A stretch of DNA of 64,000 bases, taken from the NCBI GenBank assembly GCA_964016885.1, contig OZ024744.1, forward strand, positions 101,060,001-101,124,000, in the 5' to 3' direction. The stretch is from Eledone cirrhosa (lineage: Eukaryota). Shown here in pieces: positions 1 through 12,600 of the stretch. The notes below the pieces were generated by a model. It ran no database searches, was not told the DNA's origin, and saw only the letters and a list, made by a program, of their open reading frames with translations. The position numbers and the translations under genes were made by a program. Numbering within the stretch: the stretch's first letter is position 1; every line of letters begins with the position of its first letter.

Positions 1-3000
1 TCAGCTCCCATTTGGTGTAAAGGTTATCACTAAAGTTATTGCATATAGTTGCTAATTTAGACAGGGACTGTTGTCAGCTCCCATTTGGTGTAAAGGTTAA
101 CACTAAAGTTATTGTATATAGTTCCTAATTTGTACAGAGACTGTTGTCAGCTCCCATTTGGTGTAAAGGTTAACACTAAAGTTATTGTATATAGTTCCTA
201 ATTTGGACAGAGACTGTTGTCAGCTCCCATTTGGTGTAAAGGTTAACACTAAAGTTATTGCATATAGTTGCTAATTTAGACAGGGACTGTTGTCAGCTCC
301 CATTTGGTGTAAAGGTTAACACTAAAGTTATTGTATATAGTTCCTAATTTGGACAGGGACTGTTGTCAGCTCCCATTTGGTGTAAAGGTTAACACTAAAG
401 TTATTGCATATAGTTCCTAATTTGGACAGAGACTGTTGTCAGCTCCCATTTGGTGTAAAGGTTAACACTAAAGTTATTGTATATAGTTCCTAATTTGGAC
501 AGGGACTGTTGTCAGCTCCCATTTGGTGTAAAGGTTAACACTAAAGTTATTGTATATAGTTCCTAATTTGGACAGAGACTGTTGTCAGCTCCCATTTGGT
601 GTAAAGGTTAACACTAAAGTTATCGTATATAGTTCCTAATTTGGACAGAGACTGTTGTCAGCAACCATTTACTGTAAAGATTAACACTAAAGTTACTATA
701 TATAGTTCCTAATTTCGACAGAGACTGTTGTCAGCTCCCATTTGGTGTAAAGGTTAACACTAAAGTTATTGTATATAGTTCCTAATTTGGACAGGGACTG
801 TTGTCAGCTCCCATTTGGTGTAAAGTTTAACACTAAAGTTATCGTATATAGTTCCTAATATGGACAGAGACTGTTGTCAGCTCCCATTTACTGTAAAGAT
901 TAACACTAAAGTTACTATATATAGTTCCTAATTTGGACAGAGACTGTTGTCAGCTCCCATTTGGTGTAAAGGTTAACACTAAAGTTATTGTATATAGTCC
1001 CTAATTTGGACAGGGACTGTTGTCAGCTCCCATTTGGTGTAAAGGTTAACACTAAAGTTATTGTATATAGTCCCTAATTTTGACAGGGACTGTTGTCAGC
1101 TCCCATTTGGTGTAAAGGTTAACACTAAAGTTATTGTATATAGTCCCTAATTTTGACAGGGACTGTTGTCAGCTCCCATTTGGTGTAAAGGTTAACACTA
1201 AAGTTATTGTATAGTTCCTAATTTGGACAGGGACTGTTGTCAACTCCCATTTGGTGTAAAGGTTAACACTAAAGTTATTATATATAGTTCCTAATTTGGA
1301 CAGGGACTGTTGTCAGCTCCCATTTGGTGTAAAGGTTAACACTAAAGTTATTGTATATAGTCCCTAATTTTGACAGGGACTGTTGTCAGCTCCCATTTGG
1401 TGTAAAGGTTAACACTAAAGTTATTGTATAGTTCCTAATTTGGACAGGGACTGTTGTCAACTCCCATTTGGTGTAAAGGTTAACACTAAAGTTATTATAT
1501 ATAGTTCCTAATTTGGACAGGGACTGTTGTCAGCTCCCATTTGGTGTAAAGGTTAACACTAAAGTTATTGTATATAGTTCCTAATTTGGACAGGGACTGT
1601 TGTCAGCTCCCATTTGGTGTAAAGGTTAACACTAAAGTTATTGTATATAGTCCCTAATTTTGACAGGGACTGTTGTCAGCTCCCATTTGGTGTAAAGGTT
1701 AACACTAAAGTTATTGTATAGTTCCTAATTTGGACAGGGACTGTTGTCAACTCCCATTTGGTGTAAAGGTTAACACTAAAGTTATTATATATAGTTCCTA
1801 ATTTGGACAGGGACTGTTGTCAGCTCCCATTTGGTGTAAAGGTTAACACTAAAGTTATTGTATATAGTTCCTAATTTGGACAGGGACTGTTGTCAGCTCC
1901 CATTTGGTGTAAAGGTTAACACTAAAGTTATTGTATATAGTCCCTAATTTGGACAGGGACTGTTGTCAGCTCCCATTTGGTGTAAAGGTTAACACTAAAG
2001 TTATTGTATATAGTTCCTAATTTGGACAGAGACTGTTGACAGCTCCCATTTGGTGTAAAGATTAACACTAAAGCTATTATATATAGTTCCTAATTTGGAC
2101 AGAGACAGTTGTCAGCTCCCATTTGGTGTAAAGATTAACACTAAAGCTATTGTATATAGTCCCTAATTTGGACAGAGACTGTTGTCAGCTCCCATTTGGT
2201 GTAAAGGTTAACACTAAAGTTATTGTATATAGTTCCTAATTTGGACAGAGAGTGTTGTCAGCTCCCATTTGGTGTAAAGGCTAACACTAAAGTTATTGTA
2301 TATAGTTCCTATTTTGGACAGGGACTGTTGTCAGCTCCCATTTGGTGTAAAGGCTAACACTAAAGTTATTGTATATAGTTCCTATTTTGGACAGAGACAG
2401 TTGTCAGCTCCCATTTGGTGTAAAGGTTAACACTAAAGTTATTGTATAGTTCCTAATTTGGACAGGGACTGTTGTCAACTCCCATTTGGTGTAAAGGTTA
2501 ACACTAAAGTTATTATATATAGTTCCTAATTTGGACAGGGACTGTTGTCAGCTCCCATTTGGTGTAAAGGTTAACACTAAAGTTATTGTATATAGTTCCT
2601 AATTTGGACAGGGACTGTTGTCAGCTCCCATTTGGTGTAAAGGTTAACACTAAAGTTATTGTATATAGTCCCTAATTTTGACAGGGACTGTTGTCAGCTC
2701 CCATTTGGTGTAAAGGTTAACACTAAAGTTATTGTATAGTTCCTAATTTGGACAGGGACTGTTGTCAACTCCCATTTGGTGTAAAGGTTAACACTAAAGT
2801 TATTATATATAGTTCCTAATTTGGACAGGGACTGTTGTCAGCTCCCATTTGGTGTAAAGGTTAACACTAAAGTTATTGTATATAGTTCCTAATTTGGACA
2901 GGGACTGTTGTCAGCTCCCATTTGGTGTAAAGGTTAACACTAAAGTTATTGTATATAGTCCCTAATTTTGACAGGGACTGTTGTCAGCTCCCATTTGGTG

Positions 3001-6000
3001 TAAAGGTTAACACTAAAGTTATTGTATAGTTCCTAATTTGGACAGGGACTGTTGTCAACTCCCATTTGGTGTAAAGGTTAACACTAAAGTTATTATATAT
3101 AGTTCCTAATTTGGACAGAGACTGTTGTCAGTTCCCATTTGGTGTAAAGGTTAACACTAAAGTTATTGTATATAGTTCCTAATTTGGACAGGGACAGTTG
3201 TCAGTTCCCATTTGGTGTAAAGGTTAACACTAAAGTTATTGTATATAGTTCCTAATTTGGACAGGGATTGTTGTCAGCTCCCATTTGGTGTAAAGGTTAA
3301 CACTAAAGTTATTGTATATAGTTCCTAATTTGGACAGGGACTGTTGTCAGTTCCCATTTGGTGTAAAGGTTAACACTGAAGTTATTGTATATAGTTCCTA
3401 TTTTGGACAGGGACTGTTGTCAGCTCCCATTTGGTGTAAAGGTTAACACTAAAGTTATTGTATATAGTCCCTAATTTTGACAGGGACTGTTGTCAGCTCC
3501 CATTTGGTGTAAAGGTTAACACTAAAGTTATTGTATATAGTTCCTAATTTGGACAGAGACAGTTGTCAGCTCCCATTTGGTGTAAAGGTTAACACTAAAG
3601 TTATTGTATATAGTCCCTAATTTTGACAGGGACTGTTGTCAGCTCCCATTTGGTGTAAAGGTTAACACTAAAGTTATTGTATAGTTCCTAATTTGGACAG
3701 AGACAGTTGTCAGCTCCCATTTGGTGTAAAGGTTAACACTAAAGTTATTGTATATAGTTCCTAATTTGGACAGAGACAGTTGTCAGCTCCCATTTGATGT
3801 AAAGGTTATCACTAAAGTTATTGTATATAGTTCCTAATTTAGACAGAGACTGTTGACAGCTCCCATTTGGTGTAAAGGTTAACACTAAAGTTATTGTATA
3901 TAGTTCCTAATTTGGACAGAGACTGTTGACAGCTCCCATTTGGTGTAAAGATTAACACTAAAGCTATTATATATAGTTCCTAATTTGGACAGAGACAGTT
4001 GTCAGCTCCCATTTGGTGTAAAGATTAACACTAAAGCTATTGTATATAGTCCCTAATTTGGACAGAGACTGTTGTCAGCTCCCATTTGGTGTAAAGGTTA
4101 ACACTAAAGTTATTGTATATAGTTCCTAATTTGGACAGAGAGTGTTGTCAGCTCCCATTTGGTGTAAAGGCTAACACTAAAGTTATTGTATATAGTTCCT
4201 ATTTTGGACAGGGACTGTTGTCAGCTCCCATTTGGTGTAAAGGCTAACACTAAAGTTATTGTATATAGTTCCTATTTTGGACAGAGACAGTTGTCAGCTC
4301 CCATTTGGTGTAAAGGTTAACACTAAAGTTATTATATATAGTTCCTAATTTGTACAGAGACTGTTGTCAGCTCCCATTTGGTGTAAAGGTTAACACTAAA
4401 GTTATCGTATATAGTTCCTAATTTGTACAGAGACTGTTGTCAGCTCCCATTTGGTGTAAAGGTTAACACTAAAGTTATTGTATATAGTTCCTAATTTGGA
4501 CAGAGGCTGTTGTCAGCTCCCACTTCGTGTAAAGGTTAACACTAAAGTTATTGTATATAGTTCCTAATTTGGACAGAGACTGTTGTCAGCTCCCATTTGG
4601 TGTAAAGGTTAACACTAAAGTTATTGTATATAGTTCCTAATTTGGACAGGGACTGTTGTCAGCTCCCATTCGGTGTAAAGGTTAACACTAAAGTTATCGT
4701 ATATAGTCCCTAATTTGGACAGGGACTGTTGTCAGCTCCCATTTGGTGTAAAGGTTAACACTAAAGTTATCGTATATAGTCCCTAATTTTGACAGGGACT
4801 GTTGTCAGCTCCCATTTGGTGTAAAGGTTAACACTAAAGTTATTGTATATAGTTCCTAATTTGGACAGGGACTGTTGTCAGCTCCCATTTGGTGTAAAGG
4901 TTAACACTAAAGTTATTGTATATAGTTCCTAATTTGGACAGGGACTGTTGTCAGCTCCCATTTGGTGTAAAGATTAACACTAAAGTTATTGTATATAGTC
5001 CCTAATTTTGACAGGGACTGTTGTCAGCTCCCATTTGGTGTAAAGGTTAACACTAAAGTTATTGTATAGTTCCTAATTTGGACAGGGACTGTTGTCAACT
5101 CCCATTTGGTGTAAAGGTTAACACTAAAGTTATTATATATAGTTCCTAATTTGGACAGAGACTGTTGTCAGCTCCCATTTGGTGTAAAGGTTAACACTAA
5201 AGTTATTGTATATAGTTCCTAATTTGGACAGGGATTGTTGTCAGCTCCCATTTGGTGTAAAGGTTAACACTAAAGTTATTGTATATAGTTCCTAATTTGG
5301 ACAGGGACTGTTGTCAGTTCCCATTTGGTGTAAAGGTTAACACTGAAGTTATTGTATATAGTTCCTATTTTGGACAGGGACTGTTGTCAGCTCCCATTTG
5401 GTGTAAAGGTTAACACTAAAGTTATTGTATATAGTCCCTAATTTTGACAGGGACTGTTGTCAGCTCCCATTTGGTGTAAAGGTTAACACTAAAGTTATTG
5501 TATATAGTTCCTAATTTGGACAGAGACAGTTGTCAGCTCCCATTTGGTGTAAAGGTTAACACTAAAGTTATTGTATATAGTTCCTAATTTGGACAGAGAC
5601 AGTTGTCAGCTCCCATTTGATGTAAAGGTTATCACTAAAGTTATTGTATATAGTTCCTAATTTAGACAGAGACTGTTGACAGCTCCCATTTGGTGTAAAG
5701 GTTAACACTAAAGTTATTGTATATAGTTCCTAATTTGGACAGAGACTGTTGACAGCTCCCATTTGGTGTAAAGATTAACACTAAAGCTATTATATATAGT
5801 TCCTAATTTGGACAGAGACAGTTGTCAGCTCCCATTTGGTGTAAAGATTAACACTAAAGCTATTGTATATAGTCCCTAATTTGGACAGAGACTGTTGTCA
5901 GCTCCCATTTGGTGTAAAGGTTAACACTAAAGTTATTGTATATAGTTCCTAATTTAGACAGAGAGTGTTGTCAGCTCCCATTTGGTGTAAAGGCTAACAC

Positions 6001-7550
6001 TAAAGTTATTGTATATAGTTCCTATTTTGGACAGGGACTGTTGTCAGCTCCCATTTGGTGTAAAGGCTAACACTAAAGTTATTGTATATAGTTCCTATTT
6101 TGGACAGAGACAGTTGTCAGCTCCCATTTGGTGTAAAGGTTAACACTAAAGTTATTATATATAGTTCCTAATTTGTACAGAGACTGTTGTCAGCTCCCAT
6201 TTGGTGTAAAGGTTAACACTAAAGTTATCGTATATAGTTCCTAATTTGTACAGAGACTGTTGTCAGCTCCCATTTGGTGTAAAGGTTAACACTAAAGTTA
6301 TTGTATATAGTTCCTAATTTGGACAGAGGCTGTTGTCAGCTCCCATTTGGTGTAAAGGTTAACACTAAAGCTATTGTATATAGTTCCTATTTTGGACAGA
6401 GGCTGTTGTCAGCTCCCACTTCGTGTAAAGGTTAACACTAAAGTTATTGTATTTAGTTCCTAATTTGGACAGGGACTGTTGTCAGCTCCCATTTGGTGTA
6501 AAGGTTATCACTAAAGTTATTGCATATAGTTGCTAATTTAGACAGGGACTGTTGTCAGCTCCCATTTGGTGTAAAGGTTAACACTAAAGTTATTGTATAT
6601 AGTTCCTAATTTGTACAGAGACTGTTGTCAGCTCCCATTTGGTGTAAAGGCTAACACTAAAGTTATTGTATATAGTTCCTATTTTGGACAGGGATTGTTG
6701 TCAGCTCCCATTTGGTGTAAAGGTTAACACTAAAGTTATTGTATATAGTTCCTAATTTGGACAGGGACTGTTGTCAGCTCCCATTTGGTGTAAAGGTTAA
6801 CACTAAAGTTATATATAGTTCCTAATTTGGACAGAGACTGTTGTCAACTCCCATTTGGTGTAAAGGTTATCACTAAAGTTATTGTATATAGTTCCTAATT
6901 TAGACAGGGACTGTTGTCAGCTCCCATTTGGTGTAAAGGTTAACACTAAAGTTATTGTATATAGTTCCTAATTTGGACAGAGACTGTTGTCAGCTCCCAT
7001 TTACTGTAAAGATTAACACTAAAGTTACTATATATAGTTCCTAATTTGGACAGAGACTGTTGTCAGCTCCCATTTGGTGTAAAGGTTAACACTAAAGCTA
7101 TTGTATATAGTTCCTAATTTGGACAGGGACTGTTGTCAGCTCCCATTTGGTGTAAAGATTAACACTAAAGTTATTGTATATAGTTCCTAATTTGGACAGA
7201 GACTGTTGTCAGCTCCCATTTGGTGTAAAGGTTAACACTAAAGCTATTATATATAGTTCCTAATTTGGACAGAGACAGTTGTCAGCTCCCATTTGGTGTA
7301 AAGATTAACACTAAAGCTATTGTATATAGTCCCTAATTTGGACAGAGACTGTTGTCAGCTCCCATTTGGTGTAAAGGTTAACACTAAAGTTATTGTATAT
7401 AGTTCCTAATTTGGACAGGGACTGTTGTCAGCTCCCATTTGGTGTAAAGTTTAACACTAAAGTTATTATATATAGTTCCTAATTTGGAAAGGGACAGTTG
7501 TCAGCTCCCATTTGGTGTAAAGGTTAACACTAAAGTTATTGTATATAGTC
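1..7550. repeat. 73-bp tandem satellite array, left segment (~103 monomers; truncated by the window start)
   Basis: TCAGCTCCCATTTGG recurs at 1, 74, 147 and onward (period 73). Monomers differ from consensus by about 0-5 substitutions. A 71-bp variant (TA deleted from GTATATAG) recurs. Confidence 0.99.
7547..7550 (+). other. Left target-site duplication AGTC
   Basis: AGTC directly precedes TGTAGCG. Removing the element plus one AGTC restores GTATATAGTCCCTAATTTGG, a monomer variant common elsewhere in the array. Confidence 0.93.
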
Positions 7551-7628
7551 TGTAGCGGTTGTCTCCCTTGTTTTGATTAGGATCTAGACGGGAAGTGGAA
7601 CCCTTTCTGCAACTTCCGGTCAGAGCCC

Positions 7629-7635
7629 TATAAAA
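7629..7635 (+). promoter_or_regulatory. Putative LTR TATA box (copy at 9360-9366)
   Basis: CC-TATAAAA lies about 80 bp into the LTR. A pyrimidine-rich, initiator-like stretch (TTCCTTTCTCTCTTT) follows about 22-35 nt downstream. Confidence 0.65.
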
Positions 7636-7849
7636 CTAACAACTTTAAGCTTCCTTTCTCTCTTTGCCTTTTCGGCACCAGGTCAAGAGTCTTCTCATTT
7701 GGCTCTGCCATTAATTTGGCCAACAGGCGCCTGGCCATAGCCAGGCGCCCTCTGCCAGCCGCGTTTGCCTGGCAATCAAAACGGTAACTACTAACTTTGT
7801 TTCATTCTAACATCTATCTTTGACATGTCAAGTATTCTATCTACCCTTA

Positions 7850-7855
7850 ATTAAA
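7850..7855 (+). terminator. Putative polyadenylation signal ATTAAA in the LTR (functional copy would be 9581-9586)
   Basis: ATTAAA about 60 nt from the LTR end, followed by CA dinucleotides and a GT/T-rich tract (TGTCTCGTTTTGTT). Confidence 0.5.
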
Positions 7856-7917
7856 TATTATATACACAAACCATGTCTCGTTTTGTTACATTCATACAAC
7901 CAGTATCCTCGCTATAT

Positions 7918-7935
7918 TGGTAACCCTGACGTGAT
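7918..7935 (+). promoter_or_regulatory. Primer binding site complementary to the 3' end of tRNA-Trp(CCA)
   Basis: TGGTAACCCTGACGTGAT versus the canonical tRNA-Trp PBS TGGTGACCCCGACGTGAT (as in avian leukosis virus): 16/18, starting 1 nt after the LTR end. Confidence 0.92.
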
Positions 7936-7949
7936 ACGAACACGCAGCC
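7918..7949 (-). other. tRNA-Trp-derived 3' fragment (positions ~45-76 including CCA); not a tRNA gene
   Basis: The minus strand reads GGCTGCGTGTTCGTATCACGTCAGGGTTACCA. The recalled metazoan tRNA-Trp 3' end is GGCTGCGTGTTCGAATCACGTCGGGGTCACCA (29/32). The T-arm is present; the anticodon and D arms are absent. Confidence 0.85.
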
Positions 7950-8132
7950 GTTCATCGCTATAAGTGGTCACCCCCAAAAAAAGAAAAAAATAGCACATCT
8001 GGTTTTGTGAGTAACATTACGAATACACAGCAAATTTAGCGACAAACTATGAAAATACTCAAGGACACGCACACACGCACATGTGGAATTCGCACAGACA
8101 TACTTTTTCTCTCACGCATCAATTAACTGTCG

Positions 8133-8267
8133 CATTTCACCAATATATATATATATGTTTCTCGTTTCTTACAACGAACACTTTCAAAACAAAAAAAACA
8201 TTTCACGATATATATATATGTTTCTCGTTTCTTACAACGAACTCTTTCAAAACACAAAAAAAAAAAA
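8133..8267. repeat. Two-copy ~66-bp tandem duplication inside the element
   Basis: CATTTCAC..(AT)n GTTTCTCGTTTCTTACAACGAAC[A/T]CTTTCAAAAC(A)n begins at 8133 and again at 8199. Confidence 0.9.
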
Positions 8268-8832
8268 AGAAATTTGATATTCTTTAAAAAACATTTCAAC
8301 AGGAACATTTATTTTCGATGAACCATTGCCTTTTGTTCTTCGTTTTCTTCATTGTTCAAGTTTTTTTTTTTTTTTTTTCAAAAAGTTCACACCTATAATT
8401 ATGCTGATTGAAGCCTTTCTTTTTCATCATTGTCACTTTCAAAATTGCACTATCATTTTCTCGCGCGTTAGAAATATTTTTTTTTCAACCTTGTATTGGC
8501 ACGTGTAGGCAGCATAAATTCTCGATTCACTGAGATGTCTCTACTCACAGACAGCCGCACGCCATTTATCACCAGGGATTCTTCAGCCTTAAGCTATATT
8601 CTTCTATTTGCCGGTTTATAAATTTACAATGTAAATTTACCGTTGATAACCGCGCATTTATTAAGAATGCTTATTTCTCTGGTCGCTGGCCTCTTGACCC
8701 TTCCAGGTCAACGCATTCTCAACATCGACCATCAACTTCGGCTGCTATTTCTAGCACTTTGCGCAACTCATTTTTTCTAAGTAAATTTTTTTTACTGTGA
8801 ATTTAAACACCGAATACGCTCACTCAGCGAGA

Positions 8833-8870
8833 CAACAGCAGCAGCAACAGCAATATAACAGCAACAGCAA
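8833..8870. repeat. Imperfect CAG/CAA trinucleotide microsatellite
   Basis: CAACAGCAGCAGCAACAGCAATATAACAGCAACAGCAA. Confidence 0.8.
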
Positions 8871-9269
8871 TACATCAATACAGCTTCACCAAAGCCAGAG
8901 AATTCATTTTTGCAGCACTCTTCCTGTGAGAAAATCCATTCGGAGGTTGGAAATTTCACGATATACCACAGAACAGAAACCACCTGCATTCATTCTCTGG
9001 AACACATTCTTTCCTGCTGTCATGTGATTGCACACCTGTGAACTATATTTTGAACTTTGAGCTCTTCTATTACTTTTACTTTATTACATTGTATCTTTGG
9101 GTGATGGATAAATGGATGTCCAGTCGTTCTCTGGCCAAGAGCGGTTGGCTACCTTGATATCTATCATTGATTTTTCCAAACATTCTTTTGTCGTAATTTT
9201 CATGCCTGTTACAACATTCTCGCCAACTTGCTACATATTTTCATTTCGATTTTTATACACTAAAATTCT

Positions 9270-9278
9270 GGCGGGAGG
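9270..9278 (+). promoter_or_regulatory. Polypurine tract (plus-strand primer), slightly degenerate
   Basis: GGCGGGAGG followed by TTA and then the TG of the 3' LTR. It is G-rich within AT-rich surroundings. Confidence 0.75.
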
Positions 9279-9281
9279 TTA

Positions 9282-9647
9282 TGTAGCGGTTGTCTCCCTT
9301 GTTTTGATTAGGATCTAGACGGGAAGTGGAACCCTTTCTGCAACTTCCGGTCAGAGCCCTATAAAACTAACAACTTTAAGCTTCCTTTCTCTCTTTGCCT
9401 TTTCGGCACCAGGTCAAGAGTCTTCTCATTTGGCTCTGCCATTAATTTGGCCAACAGGCACCTGGCCTTAGCCAGGCGCCCTCTGCCAGCCGCGTTTGCC
9501 TGGCAATCAAAACGGTAACTACTAACTTTGTTTCATTCTAACATCTATCTTTGACATGTCAAGTATTCTATCTACCGTTAATTAAATATTATATACACAA
9601 ACCATGTCTCGTTTTGTTACATTCATACAACCAGTATCCTCGCTATA
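9282..9647 (+). repeat. 3' LTR (366 bp)
   Basis: Direct copy of 7551-7916 at offset 1731. Differences: G7729/A9460, A7737/T9468, C7846/G9577. Confidence 0.97.
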
Positions 9648-9651
9648 AGTC
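9648..9651 (+). other. Right target-site duplication AGTC
   Basis: AGTC directly follows CGCTATA of the 3' LTR, and the satellite continues in phase. Confidence 0.93.
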
Positions 9652-12600
9652 CCTAATTTGGACAGGGACTGTTGTCAGCTCCCATTTGGTGTAAATGTTA
9701 ACACTAAAGTTATTGTATATAGTTCCTAATTTGGACAGAGACTGTTGTCAGCTCCCATTTGGTGTAAAGGTTAACACTAAAGTTATTGTATATAGTTTTT
9801 AATTTGGACAGGGACTGTTGTCAGCTCCCATTTGGTGTAAAGGCTAACACTAAATTTATTGTATATAGTTCCTACTTTGGACAGGGACTGTTCGCAGCTC
9901 CCATTTGGTGTAAAGGTTAACACTAAAGTTATTGTATATAGTCCCTAATTTGGACAGGGACTGTTGTTAGCTCCCATTTGGTGTAAAGATTAACACTAAA
10001 GTTATTATATATAGTTCCTAATTTGGACAGGGACTGTTGTCAGCTCCCATTTGGTGTAAAGGTTAACACTAAAGTTATTGTATATAGTTCCTAATTTGGA
10101 CAGGGACTGTTGTCAGCTCCCATTTGGTGTAAAGGTTAACACTAAAGTTATTGTATATAGTTCCTAATTTGGACAGAGACTGTTGTCAGCTCCCATTTGG
10201 TGTAAAGGTTAACACTAAAGTTATTGTATATAGTTCCTATTTTGGACAGAGACTGTTGTCAGCTCCCATTTGGTGTAAAGGTTAACACTAAAGTTATTGT
10301 ATATAGTTCCTAATTTGGACAGGGACTGTTGTTAGCTCCCATTTGGTGTAAAGATTAACACTAAAGTTATTATATATAGTTCCTAATTTGGACAGGGACT
10401 GTTGTCAGCTCCCATTTGGTGTAAAGGTTAACACTAGAGTTATTGTATATAGTTCCTATTTGGGACAGGGACTGTTGTCAGCTCCCATTTGGTGTAAAGG
10501 CTAACACTAAATTTATTGTATATAGTTCCTACTTTGGACAGGGACTGTTCGCAGCTCCCATTTGGTGTAATGGTTAACACTGAAGTTATTGTATATAGTC
10601 CCTAATTTGGACAGGGACTGTTGTTAGCTCCCATTTGGTGTAAAGATTAACACTAAAGTTATTATATATAGTTCCTAATTTGGACAGGGACTGTTGTTAG
10701 CTCCCATTTGGTGTAAAGATTAACACTAAAGTTATTATATATAGTTCCTAATTTGGACAGGGACTGTTGTCAGCTCCCATTTGGTGTAAAGGTTAACACT
10801 AAAGTTATTGTATATAGTTCCTAATTTGGACAGGGACTGTTGTCAGCTCCCATTTGGTGTAAAGGTTAACACTAAAGTTATTGTATATAGTTCCTATTTT
10901 GGACAGAGACTGTTGTCAGCTCCCATTTGGTGTAAAGGTTAACACTAAAGTTATTGTATATAGTTACTAATTTGGACAGAGACTGTTGTCAGCTCCCATT
11001 TGGTGTAAAGGTTAACACTAAAGTTATTGTATATAGTTCCTAATTTGGACAGAGATTGTTGTCAGCTCCCATTTGGTGTAAAGGTTAACACTAAAGTTAT
11101 TGTATATAGTTCCTAATTTGGACAGAGATTGTTGTCAGCTCCCATTTGGTGTAAAGGCTAACACTAAAGTTATTGTATATAGTTCCTATTTTGGACAGGG
11201 ACTGTTGTCAGCTCCCATTTGGTGTAAAGGCTAACACTAAAGTTATTGTATATAGTTCCTATTTTGGACAGGGACTGTTGTCAGCTCCCATTTGGTGGAA
11301 AGGTTATCACTAAAGTTATTGTATATAGTTCCTAATTTAGACAGGGACTGTTGTCAGCTCCCATTTGGTGTAAAGGTTAACACTAAAGTTATTGTATATA
11401 GTTCCTAATTTGTACAGAGGCTGTTGTCAGCTCCCATTTGGTGTAAAGGTTAACACTAAAGTTATTGTATATAGTTCCTAATTTGGACAGGGACAATTGT
11501 CAGCTCCCATTTGGTGTAAAGCTTAACACTAAAGTTATTGTATAGTTCCTAATTTGGACAGAGATAGTTGTCAGCTCCCATTTGGTGTAAAGGTTAACAC
11601 TAAAGTTATTGTATATAGTTCCTAATTTGGACAGGGACAATTGTCAGCTCCCATTTGGTGTAAAGCTTAACACTAAAGTTATTGTATATAGTTCCTAATT
11701 TGGACAGGGACAATTGTCAGCTCCCATTTGGTGTAAAGCTTAACACTAAAGTTATTGTATAGTTCCTAATTTGGACAGAGATAGTTGTCAGCTCCCATTT
11801 GGTGTAAAGGTTAACACTAAAGTTATTGTATATAGTTCCTAATTTGGACAGGGACAATTGTCAGCTCCCATTTGGTGTAAAGCTTAACACTAAAGTTATT
11901 GTATAGTTCCTAATTTGGACAGAGATAGTTGTCAGCTCCCATTTGGTGTAAAGGTTAACACTAAAGTTATTGTATATAGTTCCTAATTTGGACAGGGACA
12001 GTTGTCAGCTCCCATTTGGTGTAAAGCTTAACACTAAAGTTATTGTATATAGTTCCTAATTTGGACAGAGACTGTTGTCAGCTCCCATTTGGTGTAAAGG
12101 TTAACACTAAAGTTATTGTATATAGTTCCTAATTTGGACAGAGAGTGTTGTCAGCTCCCATTTGGTGTAAAGGTTAACACTAAAGTTATTGTATATAGTT
12201 CCTATTTTGGACAGAGACTGTTGTCAGCTCCCATTTGGTGTAAAGGTTAACACTAAAGTTATTGTATATAGTTCCTAATTTGGACAGGGACTGTTGTCAG
12301 CTCCCATTTGGTGTAAAGGTTAACACTAAAGTTATTGTATATAGTTCCTAATTTGGACAGGGACTGTTGTCAGCTCCCATTTGGTGTAAAGGTTAACACT
12401 AAAGTTATTGTATATAGTTCCTAATTTGGACAGGGACTGTTGTCAGCTCCCATTTGGTGTAAAGGTTAACACTAAAGTTATTGTATATAGTTCCTATTTT
12501 GGACAGAGACTGTTGTCAGCTCCCATTTGGTGTAAAGGTTAACACTAAAGTTATTGTATATAGTTCCTAATTTGGACAGAGACAGTTGTCAGCTCCCATT

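Follow-up and report, generated by a model that had tools for sequence, protein, structure and literature searches.

An LTR Element Within a Satellite Array

The window, by which we mean the whole 64-kb stretch of DNA that was analyzed, is occupied by an array of a 73-bp satellite, the left part (1-7550) and the right part (9652-64000) of which, neither assigned to a strand, are separated by the one break in the array, a 2,097-bp insertion at 7551-9647 that represents the sole non-satellite stretch present. The insertion, all features of which lie on the forward strand, is framed by 4-bp target-site duplications AGTC (7547-7550 on the left and 9648-9651 on the right). It starts with a 5' LTR of 366 bp (7551-7916), possessing TGT...ATA termini, and it ends with a 3' LTR (9282-9647), the two being identical at 363 of 366 positions and differing at 3 sites, while a polypurine-tract-like run is located at 9270-9278, 3 nt upstream of the 3' LTR. 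The internal region (7977-9269) is non-coding: no stop-to-stop open reading frame of at least 150 amino acids is present, either there or elsewhere in the window, and tblastn searches of the element with gag, PR, RT, and IN sequences from two of the loci discussed below (L016 and L018) returned a best E value of 0.10. No tRNA genes were called in the window by ARAGORN. With its LTRs, target-site duplication, primer-binding sites (see below), and polypurine-tract-like run, and without coding capacity, the element is a non-autonomous LTR retrotransposon.

The interior of the element includes a 66-nt direct repeat (91%; 8133-8198 and 8199-8261), and at the insertion site the TATA of the LTR end together with the AGTC of the target restores the satellite's own TATAGTC motif (7547-7550 and 9644-9651). 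An Rfam search over positions 7400-10500 produced two weak snoRNA matches, judged to be due to chance.

Two Primer-Binding Cassettes in the Leader

Behind the 5' LTR, the leader is arranged in the order LTR end, 32-nt tRNA-Trp complement, ~13-nt LTR-end copy, AG, and short primer-binding site (PBS). The first site, PBS1 (7918-7949), is complementary to the 3' end of tRNA-Trp including CCA and extends past tRNA position 58, with A, not T, found opposite A58. It agrees at 27 of 32 positions with our reference, the tRNA-Trp(CCA) called by ARAGORN in locus L013, which belongs to another organism. CCA is added to tRNAs on maturation, and its inclusion in the copy therefore points to mature tRNA as the source. 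The LTR end itself, TCGCTATA (7909-7916, repeated at 9640-9647 and there followed by the target duplication AGTC), recurs behind the tRNA complement, where GTTCA (7950-7954), TCGCTATA (7955-7962), AG (7963-7964), and TGGTCACCCC (7965-7974) follow each other, the last of these agreeing with the 3' complement of the reference tRNA at 9 of 10 positions. PBS2, which we take to be an older, short PBS, spans 7965-7976 and matches at 10 of 12 positions in the window copy. Only three occurrences of TCGCTATA are found in the 64 kb, i.e., the two LTR ends and 7955-7962. The two cassettes differ in their spacers (T versus AG), with AG before the PBS also found in loci L004, L006, L007, L014, and L018. 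Both the coordinates and the order of parts given in the initial annotation of this stretch hold, and the 8-nt LTR-end repeat that it had reported is real and longer than noted, as ~13 nt of U5 (7950-7962) are re-copied, the last 8 of them identical to the LTR end.

A chance estimate, proposed in the same annotation as a check, speaks strongly for a genuine duplication. The chance of the 8-mer occurring within 40 nt is 9.8e-4, the chance of a PBS match of at least 9 of 10 within 40 nt is 5e-4, and both motifs in order, with a spacer of 0-3 nt, are expected with a chance of 4.9e-8. A lenient Markov simulation (at least 6 of 8 plus at least 8 of 10 matches, 60 starts) reached this in 3 of 40,000 trials, and the layout recurs in two other loci, L011 and L002 (see below). 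Coincidental resemblance could draw on the 25-32% of reads that differ at two of the eight LTR-end letters, but given these estimates and the recurrence it must be considered extremely improbable.

The correspondence between the cassettes extends further upstream. A gapped alignment of U5 plus PBS1 with the tail plus PBS2 covers 35 columns, at a score reached by none of 2,000 shuffles (p = 0.0005). In register, the final 9 nt of this tRNA complement (7941-7949, 15 nt before PBS2) fall opposite U5 positions 7893-7901, located 16 nt before PBS1. This U5 stretch resembles the end of the tRNA copy at 6 of 9 positions and may have served as a microhomology landing site; as the outcome of a free search, the look-alike is not significant (p = 0.81).

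Copies of the Family in Sequencing Reads

From two RAD runs (X14 and X15), which represent a biased and uneven sample of copies, 642 and 515 reads, respectively, were placed, and the cassettes are covered by these reads as well as by contigs of runs X2 and X4. Behind 7916, 86 (X14) and 97 (X15) reads leave into diverse flanks, and depth across the LTR end goes from 186 to 112 and from 187 to 95. These diverse flanks, along with the many subfamily variants, place the window element in a multi-copy, dispersed family. Across 7962, depth does not fall, going from 120 to 129 (X14) and from 90 to 93 (X15), so that nothing in it points to insertions that stop at the second cassette. This bears on the proposition that PBS2, along with its LTR-end motif, functions as an additional site of priming with its own end for integration. 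In HIV vectors with two PBSs, dual initiation was reportedly observed by Voronin and Pathak in 2004, and in the window PBS2 keeps 10 of 12 positions, with an intact LTR-end motif before it. However, besides the absence of a depth drop, no run-off at 7962 is seen among the loose ends listed (down to 48 and 26 reads, a loose bound), the 3' LTR of the window element ends at the first-cassette boundary and carries no PBS sequence, and the duplex predicted for PBS2 is weak (-14.3 versus -28.0 for PBS1), making a second working end highly improbable.

Members with only the second cassette, or with additional cassettes, were also sought, as the initial annotation had suggested. None of the joints listed for the X14 and X15 reads skips or repeats a cassette, no such joint is found in X1 over the cassette region, and no sampled read shows the old junction by itself. 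Runs X5-X7, from three other organisms, match parts of the LTR or of the long PBS, none of the matches spanning 7952-7993. In run X6, contigs matching window positions 7912-7949 share only the long PBS; their upstream end differs, and the PBS is followed by several additional tRNA-like bases, possibly representing a further long-PBS family.

In the LTR-end copy, 7956T together with 7958T is present in 30 of 118 (X14) and 29 of 90 (X15) reads (25-32%) and in the main X4 contig, and therefore the 8/8 identity with the LTR end is not universal among copies. In PBS2, 7969G (11 of 126 and 7 of 86 reads, respectively) makes the first 10 nt perfect and is confined to reads with at least 7 other differences, while 7975G (46 of 145 and 42 of 96 reads) lengthens the tRNA match to position 12; both variants move toward a 12-nt tRNA match and fit the reading of PBS2 as an older PBS. 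In PBS1, the variants matching the reference tRNA are 7922G (27 of 111 and 19 of 93 reads) and 7927C (25 of 110 and 17 of 92 reads). At PBS1 positions 5 and 10 (within 7918-7935), mismatches to the reference tRNA are present in ~76-82% of reads. They persist though refreshing from the primer would be expected in each cycle, which may reflect either an isodecoder or element-templated inheritance. The initial annotation had viewed the new tRNA segment as rescuing a decayed PBS; this part of its proposal finds no support in the reads, with 8-9% of them possessing perfect first 10 nt in PBS2 and most mismatched at the two PBS1 positions.

The same annotation had offered, as an alternative, an anti-PBS switch; in this reading the downstream segment would be kept as a fold-back whose hairpin closes PBS1 and regulates primer loading. 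In the minimal fold (ViennaRNA), 7919-7941 and 7950-7972 form a stem of 18 pairs, with predicted pair probabilities of 0.38-0.68 when the folded context is short and 0.90-0.97 when it is long. Of the common variants, 7956T and 7958T would preserve pairing through G-U, while 7922G would close the central mismatch. But pairing of PBS1 with PBS2 follows from any PBS duplication, because GGTNACC is a self-complementary palindrome, and the fold is not significant when compared to shuffled sequences (z = -1.02, -0.60, and -1.76, the score being equaled or bettered in 31, 59, and 14 of 200 shuffles). The leaders of L011 and L016 score z = +0.18 and +0.77 and are without a PBS:PBS stem, 7927C would break a pair, no two-sided change is present among the listed variants, and the predicted duplex of the tRNA with PBS1 (-28 kcal/mol over 18 nt) exceeds the entire hairpin (-14.7). 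A regulatory role for the fold-back thus appears improbable.

Other Loci With Long or Repeated Primer Sites

Scanning of metagenome contigs for a 29-nt tRNA-Trp complement produced 21 loci. Fourteen of these are testable after two tRNA-Glu genes (L009 and L015), a tRNA-Trp gene (L013), two loci too short downstream (L014 and L021), and two near-duplicates (L012 and L016) are left out. At p <= 0.01, a renewed copy of old template is recognized downstream of the long PBS in 4 of the 14 distinct testable loci, in two lineages, and such a re-copied junction is not recognized in 10 of the 14. One example is L011, a short LTR element with the layout LTR end, AT, long PBS, ~20-nt LTR-end copy, AC, and decayed short PBS (register p = 0.0005). 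A more elaborate case is presented by its relative L002/L016, a gag-pol element (Pfam DUF7041 Gag, RVP, RVT_1, and rve) that possesses three PBS cassettes; a copy of the U5 end precedes each of the inner two (p = 0.0005 and 0.002), and the innermost PBS, of 14 nt, is located just upstream of gag; as in the window, the 3' LTR of L002 ends at the outermost cassette. In L008 and L017, which make up the other lineage, the inner part of the PBS is re-copied (10/10 and 9/10). Blastn searches at E < 0.01 recovered no match to the LTR or the interior of the window element from any of 64 loci, and the cases of L011, L002/L016, and L008/L017 are therefore independent of the window element. The leader of L016 (about 170-315), with three cassettes and an internal PBS repeat, is the clearest case of iterated tRNA capture.

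These loci bear on a two-step scenario, in which slippage or unequal recombination duplicated the U5 end plus PBS first, and tRNA read-through lengthened the upstream PBS later. Such a sequence of events would account for the same letters, repeated duplications are found in the leaders of L008/L017 and L002, and the differing spacers suggest age. It needs two events, however, and the extension would still require re-priming at the same junction. Moreover, in the window, in L011, and in L002 alike, the tRNA tail occupies precisely the register of the U5 look-alike. Our main locus screen selected long PBSs, so that duplications of short PBSs could not appear in it. On balance, we find the two-step scenario unlikely.

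A base other than T is expected opposite A58 from misincorporation by reverse transcriptase (RT) at m1A58. Such a base is present in the window and, tRNA genes left aside, in 6 of 16 distinct loci with long copies, which fits RT misreading of m1A58. As a control, 8 of 9 loci that we take to be avian-retrovirus-like stop at 18 nt. A locus found by the 18-nt pattern alone (L061) encodes a DUF7041-like gag and possesses a 25-nt PBS. The two long-PBS patterns had no matches in viral contigs, and most of the 34 matches in genome contigs seem to be either tRNA-Arg genes or fortuitous matches in bacteria. L020 was considered as a candidate for a second cassette (p = 0.013), but the sequence in question is actually the start of a new LTR (register p = 0.25).

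Some of these loci are of separate interest. In L020, directly behind the PBS match at 1965, a 33-nt PBS abuts the start of a further LTR, which resembles the LTRs of L011 and L002, forming an LTR-PBS-LTR junction. L001 and L019 carry 50-nt tRNA-Trp complements, reaching to near tRNA position 27, with homologous flanks and upstream of open reading frames (PHD, endonuclease, and RT in L019 and NADAR in L001), possibly representing tRNA-related leaders of non-LTR elements. Eukaryotic retroelement-like sequence is also present in bacterial assemblies (L061, with gag and RT matches, L031, L048, L063, and L045), a probable contamination.

Origin of the Doubled Leader

Taken together, the data suggest that the doubled leader is probably the fixed scar of a single delayed plus-strand transfer in the ancestor of the family. 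Plus-strand strong-stop DNA normally ends at m1A58, with its end matching the PBS and overruns left unpaired, as stated in the available parts of two accounts (PMC8599865, PMC13191261). In the ancestor, RT copying the primer tRNA would have passed m1A58, placing a wrong base opposite, and continued to about tRNA position 45. The resulting 3' tail, unable to pair with the old short PBS, would have re-annealed ~46 nt upstream, at the short U5 look-alike, on a minus-strand template carrying U5, presumably an extended minus strand or a tandem-element template. The U5 end would then have been copied again, along with the spacer and the old PBS (~12 nt), resulting in the order U5, long PBS, U5 end, old PBS, leader. 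This product would have been fixed and amplified, its layout being common to the copies sampled in reads. To judge from the insertion ends, priming would now take place at PBS1, with cassette 2 a slowly decaying passenger. The core of the initial proposal, that an aberrant plus-strand transfer placed an over-long tRNA copy before an older U5/PBS junction, is thus in keeping with the register alignment, with the variants moving PBS2 toward a 12-nt match, and with the recurrence of this layout in a lineage unrelated to the window element.

Of the proposed transfer, the landing is the least certain part, because the microhomology is weak (6/9) and because a general test of U5 motifs failed. A general PAS-like or relic tRNA motif in the U5s of CsRn1-type elements (see below) lacked significance when 29 and 30 loci were tested, with p < 0.05, uncorrected, reached only in L011, L007, L018, and L021 (best p 0.012-0.03, uncorrected).

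A broader and rather doubtful extension of this model would be that in CsRn1-type elements read-through of m1A58 is routine and not lethal, and that a U5 stretch similar to the complement of the primer's T-arm provides a landing pad, each overrun adding a cassette of long PBS plus U5 end upstream in a ratchet-like fashion, as the three PBSs of L002/L016 might illustrate, with the long PBS kept as an aid to correct transfer of later overruns. If such a ratchet operates, leaders would record the degree to which the germ-line primer tRNA was modified, and they would lengthen as they take up tRNA sequence. More generally, if delayed transfers of this kind are widespread, leaders would represent a genomic record of RT stop sites on modified germ-line tRNA, and through them one could ask, in a natural setting, whether a longer complementarity at the PBS buffers against primers that are under-modified. 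Should the cassette be no more than a scar, its interest would be modest, that of a neat fossil of the mechanism.

Comparison With Known Systems

Elements of the CsRn1 clade of Ty3/gypsy (CsRn1, PwRn1, and AgCR) are described, in the available part of the account, as possessing a tRNA-Trp PBS with a motif of ~12 nt, a 4-bp target-site duplication, and TGT...ACA/AAA/ATA termini (PMC2582038). The window element resembles them in its tRNA-Trp PBS, 4-bp target-site duplication, TGT...ATA termini, and polypurine tract before the 3' LTR, and its PBS2 has the length of their PBS motif (PMC2582038, same part), while its ends match the CsRN1 att motifs at 6 of 7 positions each (PMC3601003, as far as its Table 3 goes). 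Unlike these elements, it encodes neither gag nor pol, and its 32-nt PBS1 and second U5/PBS cassette are features not described in that part of the account (PMC2582038). As no protein is encoded from which a CHCC Gag or an RT phylogeny could be derived, the element can be filed, by PBS, target-site duplication, and termini, as CsRn1-like only.

Likewise, the window element shares with TRIMs the presence of LTRs, PBS, and polypurine tract without coding capacity, but at 2,097 bp and with 366-bp LTRs it is too large to be one of them, TRIMs being defined, in the portion of the source available, by sizes of <1000 bp and terminal repeats of 100-250 bp, with biv-TRIMs lacking a canonical PBS (PMC6934838).

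A parallel is also found in the primer over-extension sequences of lentiviruses and spumaviruses. Located behind the 18-nt PBS, these pair with further tRNA bases, so that over-run strong-stop DNA still transfers (PMC13191261, in the text available). The complement in the window also extends beyond the 18-nt PBS; in the viruses run-on reaches tRNA position ~54-55 (PMC13191261), whereas in the window the complement reaches ~position 45.

Tandem U5/PBS cassettes occurring naturally in an LTR retrotransposon were not the subject of any title or abstract among the literature matches listed, which lie outside repeat databases, most subscription journals, and the older MLV/ASLV strand-transfer work. 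The class of error is already known from defective HIV-1; what may be new is a duplicating form that appears to have become fixed in a successful family. This form is present again, in up to three iterations, in a different tRNA-Trp-primed lineage with a CsRn1-type Gag.

In HIV-1, delayed second-strand transfer has been described, in the accessible part of the report, from 44 defective proviruses with tRNA inserts of 7-54 nt at deletion junctions (PMC12657518). As in these products, RT in the window family would have passed m1A58, leaving extra tRNA complement behind the PBS before a template switch (PMC12657518); by the measure of a mature-tRNA complement of >18 nt behind U5, the window presents 32 nt, including CCA. 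In HIV-1, however, the tail lands downstream, resulting in deletion and in defective, dead-end proviruses (PMC12657518), whereas in the window family it apparently landed upstream, and the product, with U5 and PBS duplicated, would have been fixed in an amplifying family. While m1A58 read-through has been described as destroying retroviral replication products, here its duplicating form appears to be fixed in a recently inserted, multi-copy family.
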